Shown here: in pieces, positions 12,052 to 17,888 of the stretch
Layout of the letters: each line of letters starts with the position of its first letter
Position numbering within the stretch: the first letter of the stretch is position 1
DNA from: Gammaproteobacteria bacterium
GTDB taxonomy: Bacteria > Pseudomonadota > Gammaproteobacteria > Arenicellales > Arenicellaceae
NCBI GenBank assembly: GCA_017854775.1
Contig: JAFMHC010000001.1
Location: 3,095-67,094, forward strand
Direction of reading: 5' to 3'
DNA length: 64,000 nt
Notes under the pieces: generated by a model
Told to the model about the DNA's origin: nothing
Databases searched by the model: none
Seen by the model: the letters and a program-made list of their open reading frames with translations, nothing else
Made by a program: the position numbers and the translations under genes

Positions 12052-12450
12052 TTAATAGCGCTTTTCGATTGGCTCAGTGCGCTCCCACTTAGCGCGCCCG
12101 CCTGGCTTCAGCCTAGTTCTTAGTTCGCCTGAACGGTCGATGTTCAACGTCGCCGAGCCAGGCTTGTCTGAGCCCACAGAAAACGTGTCTCCAGCCCAGC
12201 GGGCTCTTTTTTTGCTCACGCTCAGTACATTTTCAAAAATCTTGGTGCCTACCAATCCTGGGGCCCAGTCGTTGCGCATAACTTCTGCTTGGTAACCACT
12301 CTCGGATAGGGTGATCTCGATATATATCGACTCGCCAACTTGTTTCCAATAGCCATTTAGCGGATCATCGCCCTGTTGAGCAAGTGCGACACCTAGACCG
12401 CTGGCTAAACCTAAAACCAGTAAACAAAAACCATTCCATCTTGTGGCCAT
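12052..12450 (-). CDS. exported DUF2147-like protein
   Basis: Signal peptide, DPLNGYWK, C-terminal WER. Confidence 0.6.
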   Translation of the reverse strand: MATRWNGFCLLVLGLASGLGVALAQQGDDPLNGYWKQVGESIYIEITLSESGYQAEVMRNDWAPGLVGTKIFENVLSVSKKRARWAGDTFSVGSDKPGSATLNIDRSGELRTRLKPGGRAKWERTEPIEKRY

Positions 12451-12696: not shown

Positions 12697-13368
12697 CTAC
12701 AAAAGCCTAGTAGCACTAAAGTCTTGAGACGCGGCCAAACTTGAAAGCTCAGTAATTGCCTTGTTAACTATGATATCGCTCTCAACTGGACCGAGAAAGT
12801 CGCATACCAATACATACATCTGATGAGCCAAATCTTGGCAGTCTTCAACACTAACGGTTGGATCAAAGTGAATTGCATTCAACCCGTCTGACGCCCAATT
12901 GGCTACCACATCGGGCATCGAACTCAAGCCCTCGTCGGCGACAGCTTTGACCAACTCGCGATGATTACTGGCATCTGCACGTTTTATATATTGAGAAACA
13001 AGCTGGAGATAACGAGCAGTAACCTGCAAATGCGCCGGTAAACGTTCCAAACTTCCCTCTTCTGCGGCAGGTTCATCGGCACTCAGCGGGGTGCTCTGCT
13101 GCGGTAATATGTACGGCGGCACCGGCTTTAGATCGTCATACAGGCGCGACGATGCACTGTGCAAACCAATCATTAGCCCCTTTTTTTCGTTGACGCCAAG
13201 GCCCAGGTACTCTACCAGCTCGGCAACAACTTCAAACACATCCAGCGGCACAGTTGAGTACTTATCATGCCAATGGGAAAAGGCAGATTTAATCATATTT
13301 CGGTCATCACTCATGCGCGCAAGCCCGGCGTACACAATGCGCTGATTCAACTCGATAGTAGTAGCCAT
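12697..13368 (-). CDS. hypothetical protein, last gene of the kinase-CheX-Amt operon
   Basis: 223-aa soluble ORF, 16 bp downstream of amt. Confidence 0.75.
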   Translation of the reverse strand: MATTIELNQRIVYAGLARMSDDRNMIKSAFSHWHDKYSTVPLDVFEVVAELVEYLGLGVNEKKGLMIGLHSASSRLYDDLKPVPPYILPQQSTPLSADEPAAEEGSLERLPAHLQVTARYLQLVSQYIKRADASNHRELVKAVADEGLSSMPDVVANWASDGLNAIHFDPTVSVEDCQDLAHQMYVLVCDFLGPVESDIIVNKAITELSSLAASQDFSATRLL

Positions 13369-13384
13369 AATTTAACCCCAGCTC

Positions 13385-14692
13385 CTATTGATCGGCTTTA
13401 ATATGAGTAATCACAAAATCGCTATAACCCACTTCTTTGTGCTCACTAATATCTAAACCCCTTTGCTCCATTTTGGTGGAAACACGAAGCTTCATGACTT
13501 TGTTCAAACCAGCAAAGACGATTAACGATGCCCCAAGAGCCCATACCAGCGCAGCAACAATGCCAATTACTTGGGCCATTATTCGCTCTACATTAAACAT
13601 ATCGCCTTGATAAAATAAACCGATAGCGAGTGTTCCCCAAGCGCCACAAAAGCCATGCACCGAGACCGCTCCAACGGCGTCGTCGATACGAAATCGATTT
13701 AATACTTCGGCCGACGATACAACTAAAGCACCGCCGATAAGGGCAGCAAAAAAAGCCATGCCCGGGGCTAACGCGTCAGCCCCAGCGGTAACTGACACCA
13801 ATCCACCTAAACAACCGTTGACGATCATCGTCATGTAAAACCCACGCTTAGTAATCACTAACCATGCCAATGCGCCACAGATGCCGCCAATAGCGCCAAG
13901 ATGCGTGTTTAGTAAAATTTTGCCGAGATTAGAAAAATCACTATTAACCGACCCACCGTTAAAGCCAAACCAGCCAAACCATAAAATGAAGCCACCCAAG
14001 GCTACGAATGGCAAGCTATGACCAGAGATCTTGTGCACGTCTCCTTTACGACTAAAGCGCCCAGTTCGGGGACCAATGATAATCAGTGCACCAAGCGCAC
14101 ACCAACCACCGACCGAGTGGACTACGGTGGCGCCAGCAAAGTCTACAAAGCCCAGGTCTCGCAGCCAACCAAGGTTATCACCACTACCGCCCCAAGCCCA
14201 GGAACCGAACACCGGATAGATCACCGAGGTGACCAAGAACGCGCCAATGATATATGGCAGAAAACTGAACCGCTCAGCAACCGCACCCGACATTATAGTG
14301 GCCGCCGTGGCGGCAAACATCATTTGATAGAGTAAATTTAAACTTTCGCCGGTGGTTTCATAGGCTGGAAAAAACGAAGATGTTCCAAACCAACCGGACT
14401 CGTTCGCGCCAAACATCAAGCCAAAACCAAACACCCAATAACCGACTGTGCCTAAACCGACGTCGGTAAAGTTTTTTAAGATTACGTTAACCGCGTTCTT
14501 AGACCGCACCATGCCGCCCTCTACAAGCAGGAATCCGGCTTGCATGATTAAAATCATGGCGCAGCAAATGGCTATCCAGATATAACTAAGCACCTGCAAG
14601 GGATCAGCGGCTTGAACGTCAAGCTCCTGCGCGGACGTTAGTGAGGGCAATGTTAACGACAAAACACTTGCTAGGATTATAATATTTCGCAT
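13385..14692 (-). CDS. amt: ammonium transporter (Amt family)
   Basis: DFAGATVVHSVGG, WFGWFGFNGGS, DDAVGAVSVHG and EQRGLDISEH motifs; signal peptide. Confidence 0.95.
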   Translation of the reverse strand: MRNIIILASVLSLTLPSLTSAQELDVQAADPLQVLSYIWIAICCAMILIMQAGFLLVEGGMVRSKNAVNVILKNFTDVGLGTVGYWVFGFGLMFGANESGWFGTSSFFPAYETTGESLNLLYQMMFAATAATIMSGAVAERFSFLPYIIGAFLVTSVIYPVFGSWAWGGSGDNLGWLRDLGFVDFAGATVVHSVGGWCALGALIIIGPRTGRFSRKGDVHKISGHSLPFVALGGFILWFGWFGFNGGSVNSDFSNLGKILLNTHLGAIGGICGALAWLVITKRGFYMTMIVNGCLGGLVSVTAGADALAPGMAFFAALIGGALVVSSAEVLNRFRIDDAVGAVSVHGFCGAWGTLAIGLFYQGDMFNVERIMAQVIGIVAALVWALGASLIVFAGLNKVMKLRVSTKMEQRGLDISEHKEVGYSDFVITHIKADQ

Positions 14693-14707
14693 GGTTATTT
14701 AGCCTTT

Positions 14708-15163
14708 TTATGCCTGATTTAAATTGATAATAAGATGCGCATTCATGCCTTTCCAGACTACTGGAATAACATAAATGCTGGCCACACTAGACACCCGTAG
14801 CTGCTCGCTCTTACCTTGTAAAACTATTGGGGTGGTGAGCATAAACTGATCGCCAAAAACGCTTCGAGCGTTACCAGCTATGGTGTTACTCACTTCTCCA
14901 ACTAGGTCCATCAACTTATCGTCGCGCGTTGTCATCAAACCAATTTCGGAGATGAGCTTGATGATCATTCGTTTCGGTGCAGTAAAAAAAACTGAGCCTT
15001 TATAGTTACCAGATATGCCGATAATGCCGGTGTAATCACTGAGGTATTTGTTCACGTCTTGAATTAAAAACGGCGTACTAACCTTGGCTTCTGTGCCGGT
15101 AGTTTTATCAAAATAGTTTGTTAAACCATCAATAAAAACTTCTAAATTTCCATCTTTCATCAA
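14708..15163 (-). CDS. cheX: CheX-family phosphatase
   Basis: YTGIIGISG and DLVGEVSNTIAGN (E-x-x-N) motifs. Confidence 0.92.
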   Translation of the reverse strand: MMKDGNLEVFIDGLTNYFDKTTGTEAKVSTPFLIQDVNKYLSDYTGIIGISGNYKGSVFFTAPKRMIIKLISEIGLMTTRDDKLMDLVGEVSNTIAGNARSVFGDQFMLTTPIVLQGKSEQLRVSSVASIYVIPVVWKGMNAHLIINLNQA

Positions 15164-15525
15164 ACGATGTCCTCAATTAATTCTTCTAATGCTTCTATTA
15201 GCTCTAAGTCTCTGAACGGCTTACATAGAAAACCATAGGCACCTAGGTGCATTGCTTGTATCAGTGTGCTTTTATCAGCCAAAGCAGACACTACTAGTAT
15301 TCTGACATCGGTATCTAAGGCTATTATCTGCCGAATAGTTTCTATGCCATCCATCAGAGGCATAGTTATGTCAAGAGTCATCACCCTCGGCTTGAGAAGC
15401 TTAAATTGTTCGACCGCTTCGACGCCATTTTGCGCCGTGCCGACTATTTCAAAGTCTTCATCTTTAAGGACATTTTGAATTTTTTCTCGGATGACCATAG
15501 AGTCATCTACTACCATAAATTTCAC
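15160..15525 (-). CDS. single-domain response regulator (CheY-like)
   Basis: VVDDS, LDITMP, VVSA and KPF receiver motifs are intact. Confidence 0.92.
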   Translation of the reverse strand: MKFMVVDDSMVIREKIQNVLKDEDFEIVGTAQNGVEAVEQFKLLKPRVMTLDITMPLMDGIETIRQIIALDTDVRILVVSALADKSTLIQAMHLGAYGFLCKPFRDLELIEALEELIEDIV

Positions 15526-15550
15526 TAGTAATAACCTCGCGTATAATGTG

Positions 15551-17524
15551 TTAAATGTGTGAAGTGTTTAATTCACGAGGCTTTGGGATAGAAACCTTAA
15601 ATTGACAAAATTGTCCATGCTTATGCTGCACGCCGACTTTTCCGCCAAGTTCCTTGGCCATAGTGTGAACAAGGTCTAAACCAACGCCTCGGCCGCCATC
15701 TAGATTGGCCTCTGAAAGGCGACTAAAGCTTGGTTGAAAAATCAGTTTAAACGCGTGATCAGGATTAATTCTATCGAGTTGCTCCGCTTTTATAATGCCT
15801 AGCTCGACAGCTCGGTCTAGAATTGCTTGGTTGTCAAAACCTTCGCCGTCATCCCTGACTAGCAAATTGTAGACCCCATCAATTTCGTTGATGCTTGCGG
15901 TAACGTTTATATAATCTGTTTTACCTGCTTGCACTCGCTCTTGAGGCGCCGTGGAGCCATGTACAATACTGTTTCTAACCAGTTGCACCGCCATGCTTTG
16001 AATTGGCGCTTGTAAAGTCACAGGTAGCTGATCCAAGGTCAGTCCATATGCGCTAAAGTGAGCCCGTTTACCGTTTCTGTCGCTGACCGTTTTTGCTAAG
16101 TCACTGAGTACATTAGCAAAGCCAGTCGGAGCCGGAGTCTCCTCAGTCGGTTCCAGCTCGGCATCTTCCTTAACGAGAAGATCTTGGGTTTGACCCTCAG
16201 CCAATTTCTCAAGCAAACTTTGCATGCGCTCTAGCTCAGTAAATAATGCCTTCAGTCTAGTAATTGCCGGCAATAGGGACTTACCGGTTAGAGTCTCACC
16301 ACTCGAAGTGACCTTAACAAGCTCTTCTTCGAGACTATGGGCGATGAACTCAAATTTATGTAGACCTAATGCCGATGCATCACCTTTTGCCTTATGAACG
16401 CTTCGAGAGATCTCGGCTATTTTATTGCGAATCTCTGCGTCACCATGCCCACGCTGCTCTAGCGTTGCGTTAACTCCGTTTAGATCTGACTCGGCTGAGT
16501 CAAAGAAAGCATTCAACTGGCGTCTATCAACTTGCAAGATACGCAATAAAAGATCTATCTGTGCCTCTTGCTCTTCTTTAGTATCGGCCAGTTCGCGCTC
16601 TAAGAGAACACGTCTAGTCTCGTCGGTAACGGATACCAACAGCTGCTTCAGTTCACCGCCTTCCATTACTCGATTAAATTTAAAATCAAGGTAACGACTC
16701 TCGTAACTGCCATCTCGGCGAACCAGGTTAACTTCTACTTCGATAAGAGGATTTAAATCCTTGATCAGCTTTTCTTTAACTCGATCACCGTACAACAGCC
16801 CTAAAAACTCACGTGCGGTTTGTACCGTGTGAGCCGAAACATACTGACCAATGAAATCGAAGAAGTTTCCGTCTAAGTCACGGTCGGTTTTAAACATTTG
16901 CTTCAAAGATGCCGATTGTTCCAAACCTATTTGATAGTCGTGATCGAGTAGAAATAAGCCCTCAGACACCGTGCTCATAATACCTTTTGTCTCATTGACT
17001 ACTTTGACTTCGATGTCTTCGTTATCAGACAGTCGTAAAATCATCGGTACAATCAATAATAGGTAGAGGGCAACAGCAATAAGCCCAGCAACTACCTGTA
17101 GATAGGTAATCAATTTTAACTTGCGCTCTAGACGCCGATCGATTGTCTCTGTTAATTTTTTCGCCGATTCGGAAGCAAGTTGATAGTTGCCAACTTTAAG
17201 CTGAGAAATAAGCTGATCTAGGGTAGAAGGCACTGGCGACAAAAACTCGGATAACGCATAGGTATTTAATGCCTTACCACCAATGCGCACCGACTGACCT
17301 GTGACGAACGACTCTAAGCGCCTAATAATATCGGCCGATTCTACGGGCTGTAAATTAGCCGAGACTCGATCGGTAACTTGCATCACCGCAAACGCATAGC
17401 GAGACTCTTTTTGAGCTGTTGACAATATCGCGAAGTTCAACAACAAATACAGCAAGAACGCTGCAACCAACCCAGCAGTTGCAAAGGTTATCCCTTTGAA
17501 CCGCAACATATTATTCAAGCCCAT
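15551..17524 (-). CDS. transmembrane CheA-like histidine kinase (2 TM, PAS-like, Hpt, HATPase; no CheW domain)
   Basis: Hpt motif VHKAKG; N box LVRNSIVHG; RDDGEG; GRGVGLDLV. The protein ends right after the ATPase domain. Confidence 0.88.
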   Translation of the reverse strand: MGLNNMLRFKGITFATAGLVAAFLLYLLLNFAILSTAQKESRYAFAVMQVTDRVSANLQPVESADIIRRLESFVTGQSVRIGGKALNTYALSEFLSPVPSTLDQLISQLKVGNYQLASESAKKLTETIDRRLERKLKLITYLQVVAGLIAVALYLLLIVPMILRLSDNEDIEVKVVNETKGIMSTVSEGLFLLDHDYQIGLEQSASLKQMFKTDRDLDGNFFDFIGQYVSAHTVQTAREFLGLLYGDRVKEKLIKDLNPLIEVEVNLVRRDGSYESRYLDFKFNRVMEGGELKQLLVSVTDETRRVLLERELADTKEEQEAQIDLLLRILQVDRRQLNAFFDSAESDLNGVNATLEQRGHGDAEIRNKIAEISRSVHKAKGDASALGLHKFEFIAHSLEEELVKVTSSGETLTGKSLLPAITRLKALFTELERMQSLLEKLAEGQTQDLLVKEDAELEPTEETPAPTGFANVLSDLAKTVSDRNGKRAHFSAYGLTLDQLPVTLQAPIQSMAVQLVRNSIVHGSTAPQERVQAGKTDYINVTASINEIDGVYNLLVRDDGEGFDNQAILDRAVELGIIKAEQLDRINPDHAFKLIFQPSFSRLSEANLDGGRGVGLDLVHTMAKELGGKVGVQHKHGQFCQFKVSIPKPRELNTSHI

Positions 17525-17888
17525 CTAAAACACCAAGAATTAGTTACTCTATTGAAATTTCAATCCAGTCTCTTTGTTATTTTTATACGGTGAAAAATCC
17601 TTTCGAAAATGTAGCCAATACCTCCTGAAAAAAGGAAATATAGACAATGTTTTACTCATCGATATCAACAACTGCTGTTTAAAAATCAAATAAATTAATA
17701 AGTTAGCGTAGTCTATTATTACAACTGCCGATAAAACAGGATCAAATGAGATTGAATTGTAATCTTTTGTTTCATGCAGTCTCAAAAAATCAGACCATCC
17801 CTTAACTTCACCTATTTACTAGACATTCGCGACAAAAGTGCTCTGAAAGCGACATCCATGCCTAACTTTAGTCTGATCGGTACAGAAG

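Follow-up and report, generated by a model that had tools for sequence, protein, structure and literature searches.

Within a window of 64,000 nucleotides of contig JAFMHC010000001.1, the whole stretch of DNA that was analyzed, five genes form an operon in which an ammonium transporter gene (amt) follows the genes for a histidine kinase, CheY, and CheX, and precedes a gene for a 223-aa protein, here termed p223. We favor, with little more than even confidence, the view that this locus encodes a split, non-fused ammonium receptor, composed of the Amt and p223, which feeds a class III-type histidine kinase. The Amt and p223 are favored as the input because the Amt appears to be of the receptor type, because paralogous kinase-cheY-cheX triads have no Amt, and because a natural fusion of an Amt with the signaling domain of a methyl-accepting chemotaxis protein (MCP) has the Amt as chemosensory input. 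A preliminary description of this DNA had suggested an unfused version of the known Amt-kinase sensors, with the Amt as input or as target of the phosphorelay. The receptor-type Amt and the Amt-HAMP-MCP fusion support this suggestion, and we infer that the Amt is the input.

The genome is an Arenicella-like gammaproteobacterial metagenome-assembled genome (MAG) of 381 contigs. The five open reading frames lie on the minus strand at 12697-17524, and their coordinates yield successive gaps of 25, -4, 15, and 16 bp, exactly as the preliminary description had it. The first encodes the kinase (15551-17524, minus strand; 657 aa), with Pfam matches to Hpt (337-431) and HATPase_c (507-649) and none to a CheW domain. 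It is followed by cheY (15160-15525, minus; 121 aa; Response_reg, E 1.8e-27), cheX (14708-15163, minus; 151 aa; CheX, E 1.4e-19), which overlaps cheY by 4 bp, amt (13385-14692, minus; 435 aa; Ammonium_transp, PF00909, E 5e-105), and the p223 gene (12697-13368, minus).

The ammonium transporter and its partner p223

The definition of ammonium receptors (AmR; Pflueger et al. 2018, 2024) rests on a lateral N1/N2 site that takes up two NH4+ ions (PMC11152129). AmR also have the Amt/Rh fold with a Trp/Ser vestibule, a Phe gate, and twin His, which the window Amt shares, and a cytoplasmic transducer that is fused to the C-terminus. Among all PDB sequences, the best matches of the window Amt are the two solved ammonium receptors, Sd-Amt1 (310 bits) and Ks-Amt5 (300 bits), with a margin of more than 120 bits; the transporter Af-Amt1 reaches 179 bits, the transceptor Mep2 about 120 bits, and the transporter AmtB of E. 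coli about 99 bits. In Sd-Amt1 the N1/N2 ligands are Q22, E29, N45, D48, T104, and S107; access is by way of Phe-25, and the exit funnel is for the most part closed by Asn-269 (PMC11152129). The alignment of the window Amt with Sd-Amt1, which spans residues 36-417, retrieves all six ligands (Q51, E58, N74, D77, T132, and S135), the access Phe (F54, in place of Tyr), the exit-narrowing Asn (N292), the twin pore His (H192 and H346), and an identical Phe gate. Both pore His residues as well as the C-terminal tail (RGLDISEHKEVGY) had already been recognized in the preliminary description, and all are present. Besides its Amt domain the protein has only a tail of about 30 aa, and no transducer is fused to it. 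Judged by these residues, the window Amt would be of the ammonium-receptor type and AmR-like in its working, yet it is not a bimodular AmR.

The same features characterize the Amts that are encoded next to p223 genes in general. The six ligands, the access Phe, and the twin His are kept in 32/32 p223-linked Amts, and the position of Asn-269 of Sd-Amt1 is occupied by Asn in 29 of them and by Tyr in three. These Amts also share a conserved extension past the canonical C-terminal GY (SDFVITHIKADQ in the window Amt), the motif of which depends on the context, namely, SDF[VM][IT]TH.[RK]AD in cassettes with the kinase versus PEFQ[KR][DE].LH in stand-alone amt-p223 pairs. The genome contains three amt genes, and two of them adjoin a P-II/glnK gene and encode Amts without the full N1/N2 site. 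The operon amt has no adjacent glnK, as the preliminary description had stated; the P-II genes of the genome are situated on contigs C271, C103, C323, and C140, and none on the contig of the window.

The AlphaFold2 model of p223 (mean pLDDT 81) is all-helical, with two domains (residues 4-73 and 112-222) and a disordered linker (91-108). The protein has no match in Pfam or NCBIfam, a Foldseek search of the PDB retrieved no relative (best E 0.94), and no Pfam domain was found in the family members tested, distant ones included. The family is small: at E <= 0.001, a set of 1.84 billion proteins yielded 258 representative clusters, with few exceptions 215-260 aa long. When 400 genomes of the class were searched with a p223 profile, 10 genomes gave matches. 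All nine p223-like genes other than that of the window come immediately after an amt, which they overlap by 4 bp or from which at most 30 bp separate them, and the kinase triad is present at only one of the nine loci. Therefore, amt-p223 is an older two-gene module, and p223, which follows Amts also where no kinase is present, is primarily an Amt partner and not a kinase accessory. We regard p223 as an orphan cytoplasmic protein and the obligate downstream partner of N1/N2-type Amts. The preliminary description had underrated it, and it is the most novel component of the locus.

The genomes with stand-alone amt-p223 pairs contain no full-length member of the kinase family, and two of them have only a ChpA-like match. 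Recurrent signaling neighbors of the stand-alone pairs were sought, and none were found. In three loci from one family (L125, L127, and L130) a divergent LolA-like gene lies upstream of the stand-alone pair, and an MMPL gene comes next in L125 and L127, where this was checked. Two giant PKD-repeat proteins (P0192, 3125 aa, and P0262, 4010 aa) match the p223 profile at about positions 162-205 thirteen and seven times, respectively, which is probably a compositional effect.

Linkage and co-transcription of the five genes

The kinase family was surveyed in 201 genomes of the order and is present in 36 of them, with one to five paralogues each; 59 kinase neighborhoods were retrieved. Kinases at least 38% identical to the window protein (tblastn check; 18 species) are all followed by cheY, cheX, and amt, and p223 comes next after amt at 17/17 of these loci where the contig continues. 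Paralogues with 26-35% identity are followed by cheY and cheX at most, and never by amt. Across the 61 family loci surveyed, cheY and cheX come after the kinase gene in 54. The preliminary description had named the co-occurrence of amt with this kinase family as one point to be checked, and it would have been refuted by a lack of amt in most such operons; however, in the survey of the order amt is part of 18 of the 19 orthologous kinase-CheY-CheX operons.

In a maximum-likelihood tree, the 20 amt-linked kinases (20/20) form one clade with a Shimodaira-Hasegawa-like approximate likelihood ratio (SH-aLRT) support of 100 and a stem length of 0.91, and amt accompanies none of the 40 kinases outside of it. 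The amt label requires two changes on the tree, versus a mean of 18.4 after shuffling, and two changes were reached in 0/500 shuffles. The sole locus of the clade without amt (L064:5373-8353, G122:C24) has kinase, cheY, and cheX without amt-p223, and a convergent gene of the major facilitator superfamily (MFS) follows cheX. It is nested deep inside the amt-linked clade, and therefore represents a secondary loss.

The same arrangement is found when starting from the Amt. The contexts of four Amt homologues (60-69% identity) all contain an Hpt/HATPase kinase, a receiver, CheX, and the Amt, which is followed by an uncharacterized protein of about 232 aa or by a disrupted copy of it; these contexts include cultured Eionea flava and a Cellvibrionaceae MAG. 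Altogether, gene order and tight spacing are kept in at least 24 species of at least two orders, with kinase identity down to about 40%. The amt-p223 module was thus captured once by one kinase clade and has been retained since then.

A few loci deviate in details. At one of them (L047:5856-7790, G196:C7) a second, divergent kinase of the amt clade (43% identity; long tree branch) precedes the cassette kinase in tandem, at a distance of about 1.4 kb. In a MAG (L107:2974-8209) gene calling splits the cassette kinase into 590 + 79 aa, and the p223 match is spread over two frames, which may be due to decay of the cassette or to assembly errors. Directly after another cassette (L108:9257-13078), a second class III-type kinase and a receiver gene are followed by a HAD hydrolase gene and a NUDIX gene in place of CheX. 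The cassette of the Cellvibrionaceae MAG (L106:8855-11836) is followed on its own strand, after about 0.8 kb, by the nitrogen-related gene glnE for glutamine synthetase adenylyltransferase, a neighbor encountered only once. No conserved cargo genes were found beside the paralogous triads; the MFS gene of one sub-clade, which lies over 500 bp downstream, was rejected as a partner, and so were the housekeeping genes of other loci.

The preliminary description had expected co-transcription of the five genes from their spacing, and this is borne out, DNA carry-over permitting, by contigs from algae-associated metatranscriptomes of closely related strains, which cross all four junctions. One contig spans the kinase-cheY junction (15462-15637; X16 record 6), another the cheY-cheX-amt junctions (14610-15487; X16 record 5), and two span the amt-p223 junction (13180-13703, X22 record 23; 13177-13476, X20 record 14). 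A nitrogen-regulated promoter of its own is not apparent for amt: a sigma54-type site was sought ahead of the gene and not found, and RNA-derived contigs run on from cheX into amt.

The 364-bp gap upstream of the kinase gene contains a sigma70-type promoter sequence, TTGAGA-18-TACAAT (17756..17785, minus strand), with 10/12 consensus matches. It is a candidate only, because promoter-like matches in the region are no more common than expected by chance (12, against an expectation of 9.3 +/- 3.2). The upstream regions of six relatives were aligned and are too diverged for any motif or any conservation of the promoter to show. Downstream of p223 no terminator is evident (fold z-score +1.29). A gene for a 132-aa protein with a signal-peptide-like N-terminus (12052-12450, minus strand) lies on the same strand 246 bp past the operon, again without an evident terminator in between; the protein is conserved in the closest relatives only.

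The kinase and the entry of the signal

In the preliminary description the kinase was called CheA-like, with two transmembrane (TM) segments, a PAS-like region, Hpt (VHKAKG), and HATPase, but no CheW domain. Pfam and AlphaFold2 (mean pLDDT 85) confirm this composition and yield the order TM1 (about residues 9-38), a short helical periplasmic segment, TM2 (about 135-168), a PAS-like alpha/beta domain (189-301), a four-helix Hpt domain with the motif VHKAKGD and the phospho-His H377, two short helices, and an ATPase domain of the CheA-P4 type (488-647), right after which the model ends. NCBIfam CheA models match only the ATP-binding region (475-647), and Foldseek superimposes the catalytic domain on CheA P4 with TM-scores of 0.80-0.88 and a root-mean-square deviation (rmsd) of about 2 Å. 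H377, the N-box, and the G-boxes are conserved across 73 kinase orthologues. Between Hpt and ATPase there are only short helices (446-456 and 469-483), and superposition of the monomer model on CheA P3P4 results in an rmsd of 14-16 Å. A CheW/P5 domain (PF01584) was not matched by Pfam. Genuine CheAs have four invariable core domains (PMC10782961), and the identity as a canonical CheA was rejected because the P5/CheW-like domain is absent. The protein is thus not a CheA, and class III-type histidine kinase is the better name for it; the survey of CheAs (PMC10782961) does not treat this class. According to Adebali et al. 2017, kinases of class III reportedly combine sensory domains, Hpt, and a CheA-type kinase domain without a dimerization or CheW-like domain. 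They are said to go together with a single-domain regulator and CheX, and a role in the modulation of type IV pilus motility has reportedly been proposed. In agreement with the preliminary description, the contig of the window contains no gene for CheW or an MCP; the copies of the genome lie on C13, C134, C192, and C207, and CheR and CheB were not searched for.

The sister kinase clades carry a periplasmic PilJ sensor domain (PF13675), which the amt-linked clade lacks. The periplasmic segment has a length of about 96 aa in the amt-linked clade versus about 170 aa in the sister clades. The regions were compared by mean pairwise identity at equal catalytic-domain divergence. In the amt-linked kinases the identity is 0.18 in the periplasmic segment, versus 0.66 and 0.46 in the PilJ sister clades A and B, respectively, and the flanking segments follow this trend (TM1: 0.31 versus 0.82 and 0.54; TM2: 0.38 versus 0.88 and 0.59). 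For the PAS-like domain the values are 0.71 versus 0.53 and 0.56, and for the HATPase domain 0.49 versus 0.51 and 0.45. Therefore, the periplasmic segment is the least conserved and the PAS-like domain the most conserved region of the amt-linked kinases, and the sister clades show the reverse. The very clade that gained amt-p223 is thus the one in which constraint shifted away from the periplasmic sensor and onto the cytoplasmic domain, as would be expected if the input now reaches the kinase through a cytoplasmic or membrane-side partner. The earlier proposal that the kinase senses through its own input domains is doubtful in view of the periplasmic segment, where conservation is lower than anywhere else in the protein.

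A phylum-wide scan of Amts revealed a 1063-aa Amt-HAMP-HAMP-MCPsignal-CZB fusion (L133:848-4039, minus strand; G787:C85) with a full N1/N2 site, the gene of which adjoins asparagine synthase and metG. It appears to be an ammonium chemoreceptor with an Amt module as its basis. Its Amt is of the receptor type, is 43% identical to the window Amt, and likewise feeds a chemosensory-type pathway. In contrast to the window system, it has a fused MCP signaling domain that would need CheW and CheA, and neither p223 nor a class III kinase accompanies it.

The following mechanism is proposed. NH4+ would bind to the lateral N1/N2 site of the Amt, beneath the twin His, with the Asn narrowing the cytoplasmic exit as in Sd-Amt1. 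An occupancy-dependent change of the Amt would be read by p223 on the cytoplasmic side, probably via the conserved C-terminal extension, and p223 would pass the signal to the highly conserved PAS-like domain of the kinase. The kinase would then autophosphorylate H377 of the Hpt domain and transfer the phosphate to the single-domain CheY, from which CheX would quickly remove it, and the result would be a fast, resettable signal. Of this scheme, the gene content, the conserved linkage, the receptor-type residues, the inverted pattern of conservation, and the co-transcription are observed, and the physical contacts, the direction of signaling, and the output are inferred.

Several points weigh against such a split receptor. 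The published ammonium-receptor signature, QX6EX15NX2D[F/T]X54-60TX2[S/T] (PMC11152129), fails on the window Amt when applied strictly: V78 stands in place of F/T (F49 in Sd-Amt1), and the spacer between D and T has 53 residues and not 54-60. A missing N1/N2 site was nevertheless rejected as the explanation, as the residue alignment shows just this one substitution and a spacer one residue shorter than in Sd-Amt1. About 30% of all Amts are of the N1/N2 type, genuine transporters such as plant AMT1 among them (PMC11152129); therefore, transport is possible, and the site alone does not prove a receptor function. The occurrence of stand-alone amt-p223 pairs in genomes without the kinase means that p223 could be an Amt regulator and not a transducer. 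In the kinase, AlphaFold2 folds the periplasmic segment confidently as a helical bundle, so that some role may remain for it, and the PAS-like domain is common to all paralogues and could bind a cytoplasmic ligand by itself. Lastly, contigs from RNA libraries may hold carried-over DNA.

Output, alternatives, and related systems

CheY contains the acidic pair D7/D8, the phospho-acceptor D52, S80, and K102, and is a single receiver domain without an output domain. CheX is of the CheY-P phosphatase type, and the motif D-x3-E-x2-N, the consensus of the CheC/CheX family, is present in its sequence as DLVGEVSN. Roughly 35 paralogous triads have homologous CheY and CheX proteins without an Amt or p223 nearby, and the alpha4-beta5 face of CheY is largely common to amt-linked and paralogous triads; therefore, the output of the family probably lies elsewhere than at the Amt. 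FliM is absent from 41/41 genomes of the genus (control genomes score), and the only CheW domains are those of a ChpA-like protein of about 2,400 aa and of two small CheW proteins. As the genus has no flagellar switch, the target of CheY-P is most likely one that is common to the paralogous triads, plausibly type IV pilus-based motility. The Arenicella-like genomes, which lack FliM, contain up to five kinase-CheY-CheX triads together with a single ChpA-type system, a large expansion of receptor-array-independent CheA-type signaling in a non-flagellated genus.

A reversed direction of signaling is unlikely. The kinase would sense something else, by its PAS-like or periplasmic part, and CheY-P, directly or via p223, would gate the Amt and thereby replace GlnK. 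This would fit an operon Amt without glnK in a genome in which the other two Amts have one, a CheY that lacks both an output domain and a flagellar motor as target, a p223 that is always beside an Amt, as GlnK is with AmtB, and stand-alone pairs in which p223 would regulate the Amt. However, the paralogous triads argue that the output of the family is not an Amt, it is precisely in the clade that gained amt that conservation of the periplasmic sensor was lost, so that no specific input would be evident for the kinase, the exit of the Amt is blocked as in receptors, and a fast phosphorelay that is reset by CheX would be an unusual channel gate.

Sensing of the flux without any Amt-kinase complex, in which the Amt conducts ammonium, the PAS-like domain responds to the ensuing cytoplasmic signal (a metabolite, pH, or NH4+/NH3), co-expression is what counts, and p223 does no more than tune the channel, is distinctly improbable. 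The PAS-like domain is indeed the most conserved region of the kinase (71%), the pore residues of the window Amt are all intact, and true transporters exist among the N1/N2-type Amts (PMC11152129). But the domain is common to the PilJ-type paralogues, in which it cannot be ammonium-specific, the two glnK-linked Amts of the genome would already bring cytoplasmic ammonium, and the exit-blocking Asn is present in 29/32 p223-linked Amts. Mere co-regulation, with amt-p223 inserted into a signaling operon for shared expression and no functional coupling to the kinase, is very improbable: the pair is an independent module in other lineages and one genome of the clade lost it and kept the triad, but order and spacing have persisted across species and orders, the shift of kinase conservation is specific to the amt-linked clade, and the Amt extension motif differs between cassettes and stand-alone pairs.

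A split ammonium receptor combines known elements in a new way. Sd-Amt1 of Shewanella denitrificans is an Amt-HAMP-GGDEF ammonium receptor (PDB 8QJ3/8QJ4/8QPF; PMC11152129); its own transducer is fused and makes cyclic di-GMP, whereas the window Amt stands alone and the candidate transducers, p223 and the CheA-type kinase, are encoded by separate genes. In Ks-Amt5 of 'Ca. Kuenenia stuttgartiensis' an Amt with the same N1/N2 site is the ammonium sensor of a classical DHp/CA histidine kinase (PDB 6EU6; PMC5764959). There both parts form one polypeptide with a class I (DHp+CA) kinase, in contrast to the separate membrane kinase of the Hpt + CheA-P4 type encoded in the window, and the window system adds a dedicated CheY, a CheX, and an extra partner protein. 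The tight and almost invariable pairing of amt with the gene of a small cytoplasmic protein resembles AmtB-GlnK. This assignment was rejected, as no glnK adjoins the operon amt; in addition, p223 is unrelated to P-II (no Pfam match, all-helical, no PDB fold match), and it is encoded downstream of amt and accompanies N1/N2-type Amts only, unlike in the glnK-linked Amts of the genome, which lack that site. With the class III systems the locus shares what is reportedly typical of them, i.e., a sensory N-terminus, Hpt, and a CheA-type ATPase without CheW/P5, a single-domain regulator and CheX, and hosts without flagella but with type IV pili. It differs in the lost conservation of the periplasmic sensor and in the two extra genes inserted after cheX.

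Literature searches retrieved no Amt or p223-like partner for class III kinases, and full-text searches found no paper that joins an ammonium transporter with CheX and a histidine kinase and no Amt in a CheA/CheY gene cluster of this kind. The papers on Sd-Amt1 and Ks-Amt5 do not mention unfused or Hpt/CheA-type arrangements. The AmR-type Amt and the class III kinase system are thus known kinds, and what is new is their combination, the obligate partner p223, and the degenerated sensor of the kinase. It is conceivable, though rather doubtful in its full extent, that p223 is the founder of an unrecognized family of Amt-binding transducers with an all-helical fold that has no match, and that it reads the occupancy of N1/N2 in receptor-type Amts independently of GlnK. 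In bacteria of the Arenicella-like and Cellvibrionaceae groups, p223 would then dock the Amt trimer on the PAS-like domain of the class III kinase, and ammonium would steer type IV pilus-based surface motility without flagella or a chemoreceptor array for this input.

Amt-based receptors have so far been characterized as fusions only (Ks-Amt5 and Sd-Amt1). The locus puts sensor, candidate adaptor, and kinase into separate genes, and thereby each step becomes open to genetics and biochemistry. An orphan family that follows receptor-type Amts across the Gammaproteobacteria gains a first context and a testable role. To our knowledge, no stimulus has been established experimentally for any class III histidine kinase, and this class gains ammonium as a concrete candidate ligand. 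Experiments are feasible because Eionea flava, a carrier of the cassette, is cultured and Arenicella has cultured species. The operon also suggests how non-flagellated, surface-associated marine bacteria, which live on algae, plastic, and in biofilms, might respond behaviorally to ammonium.

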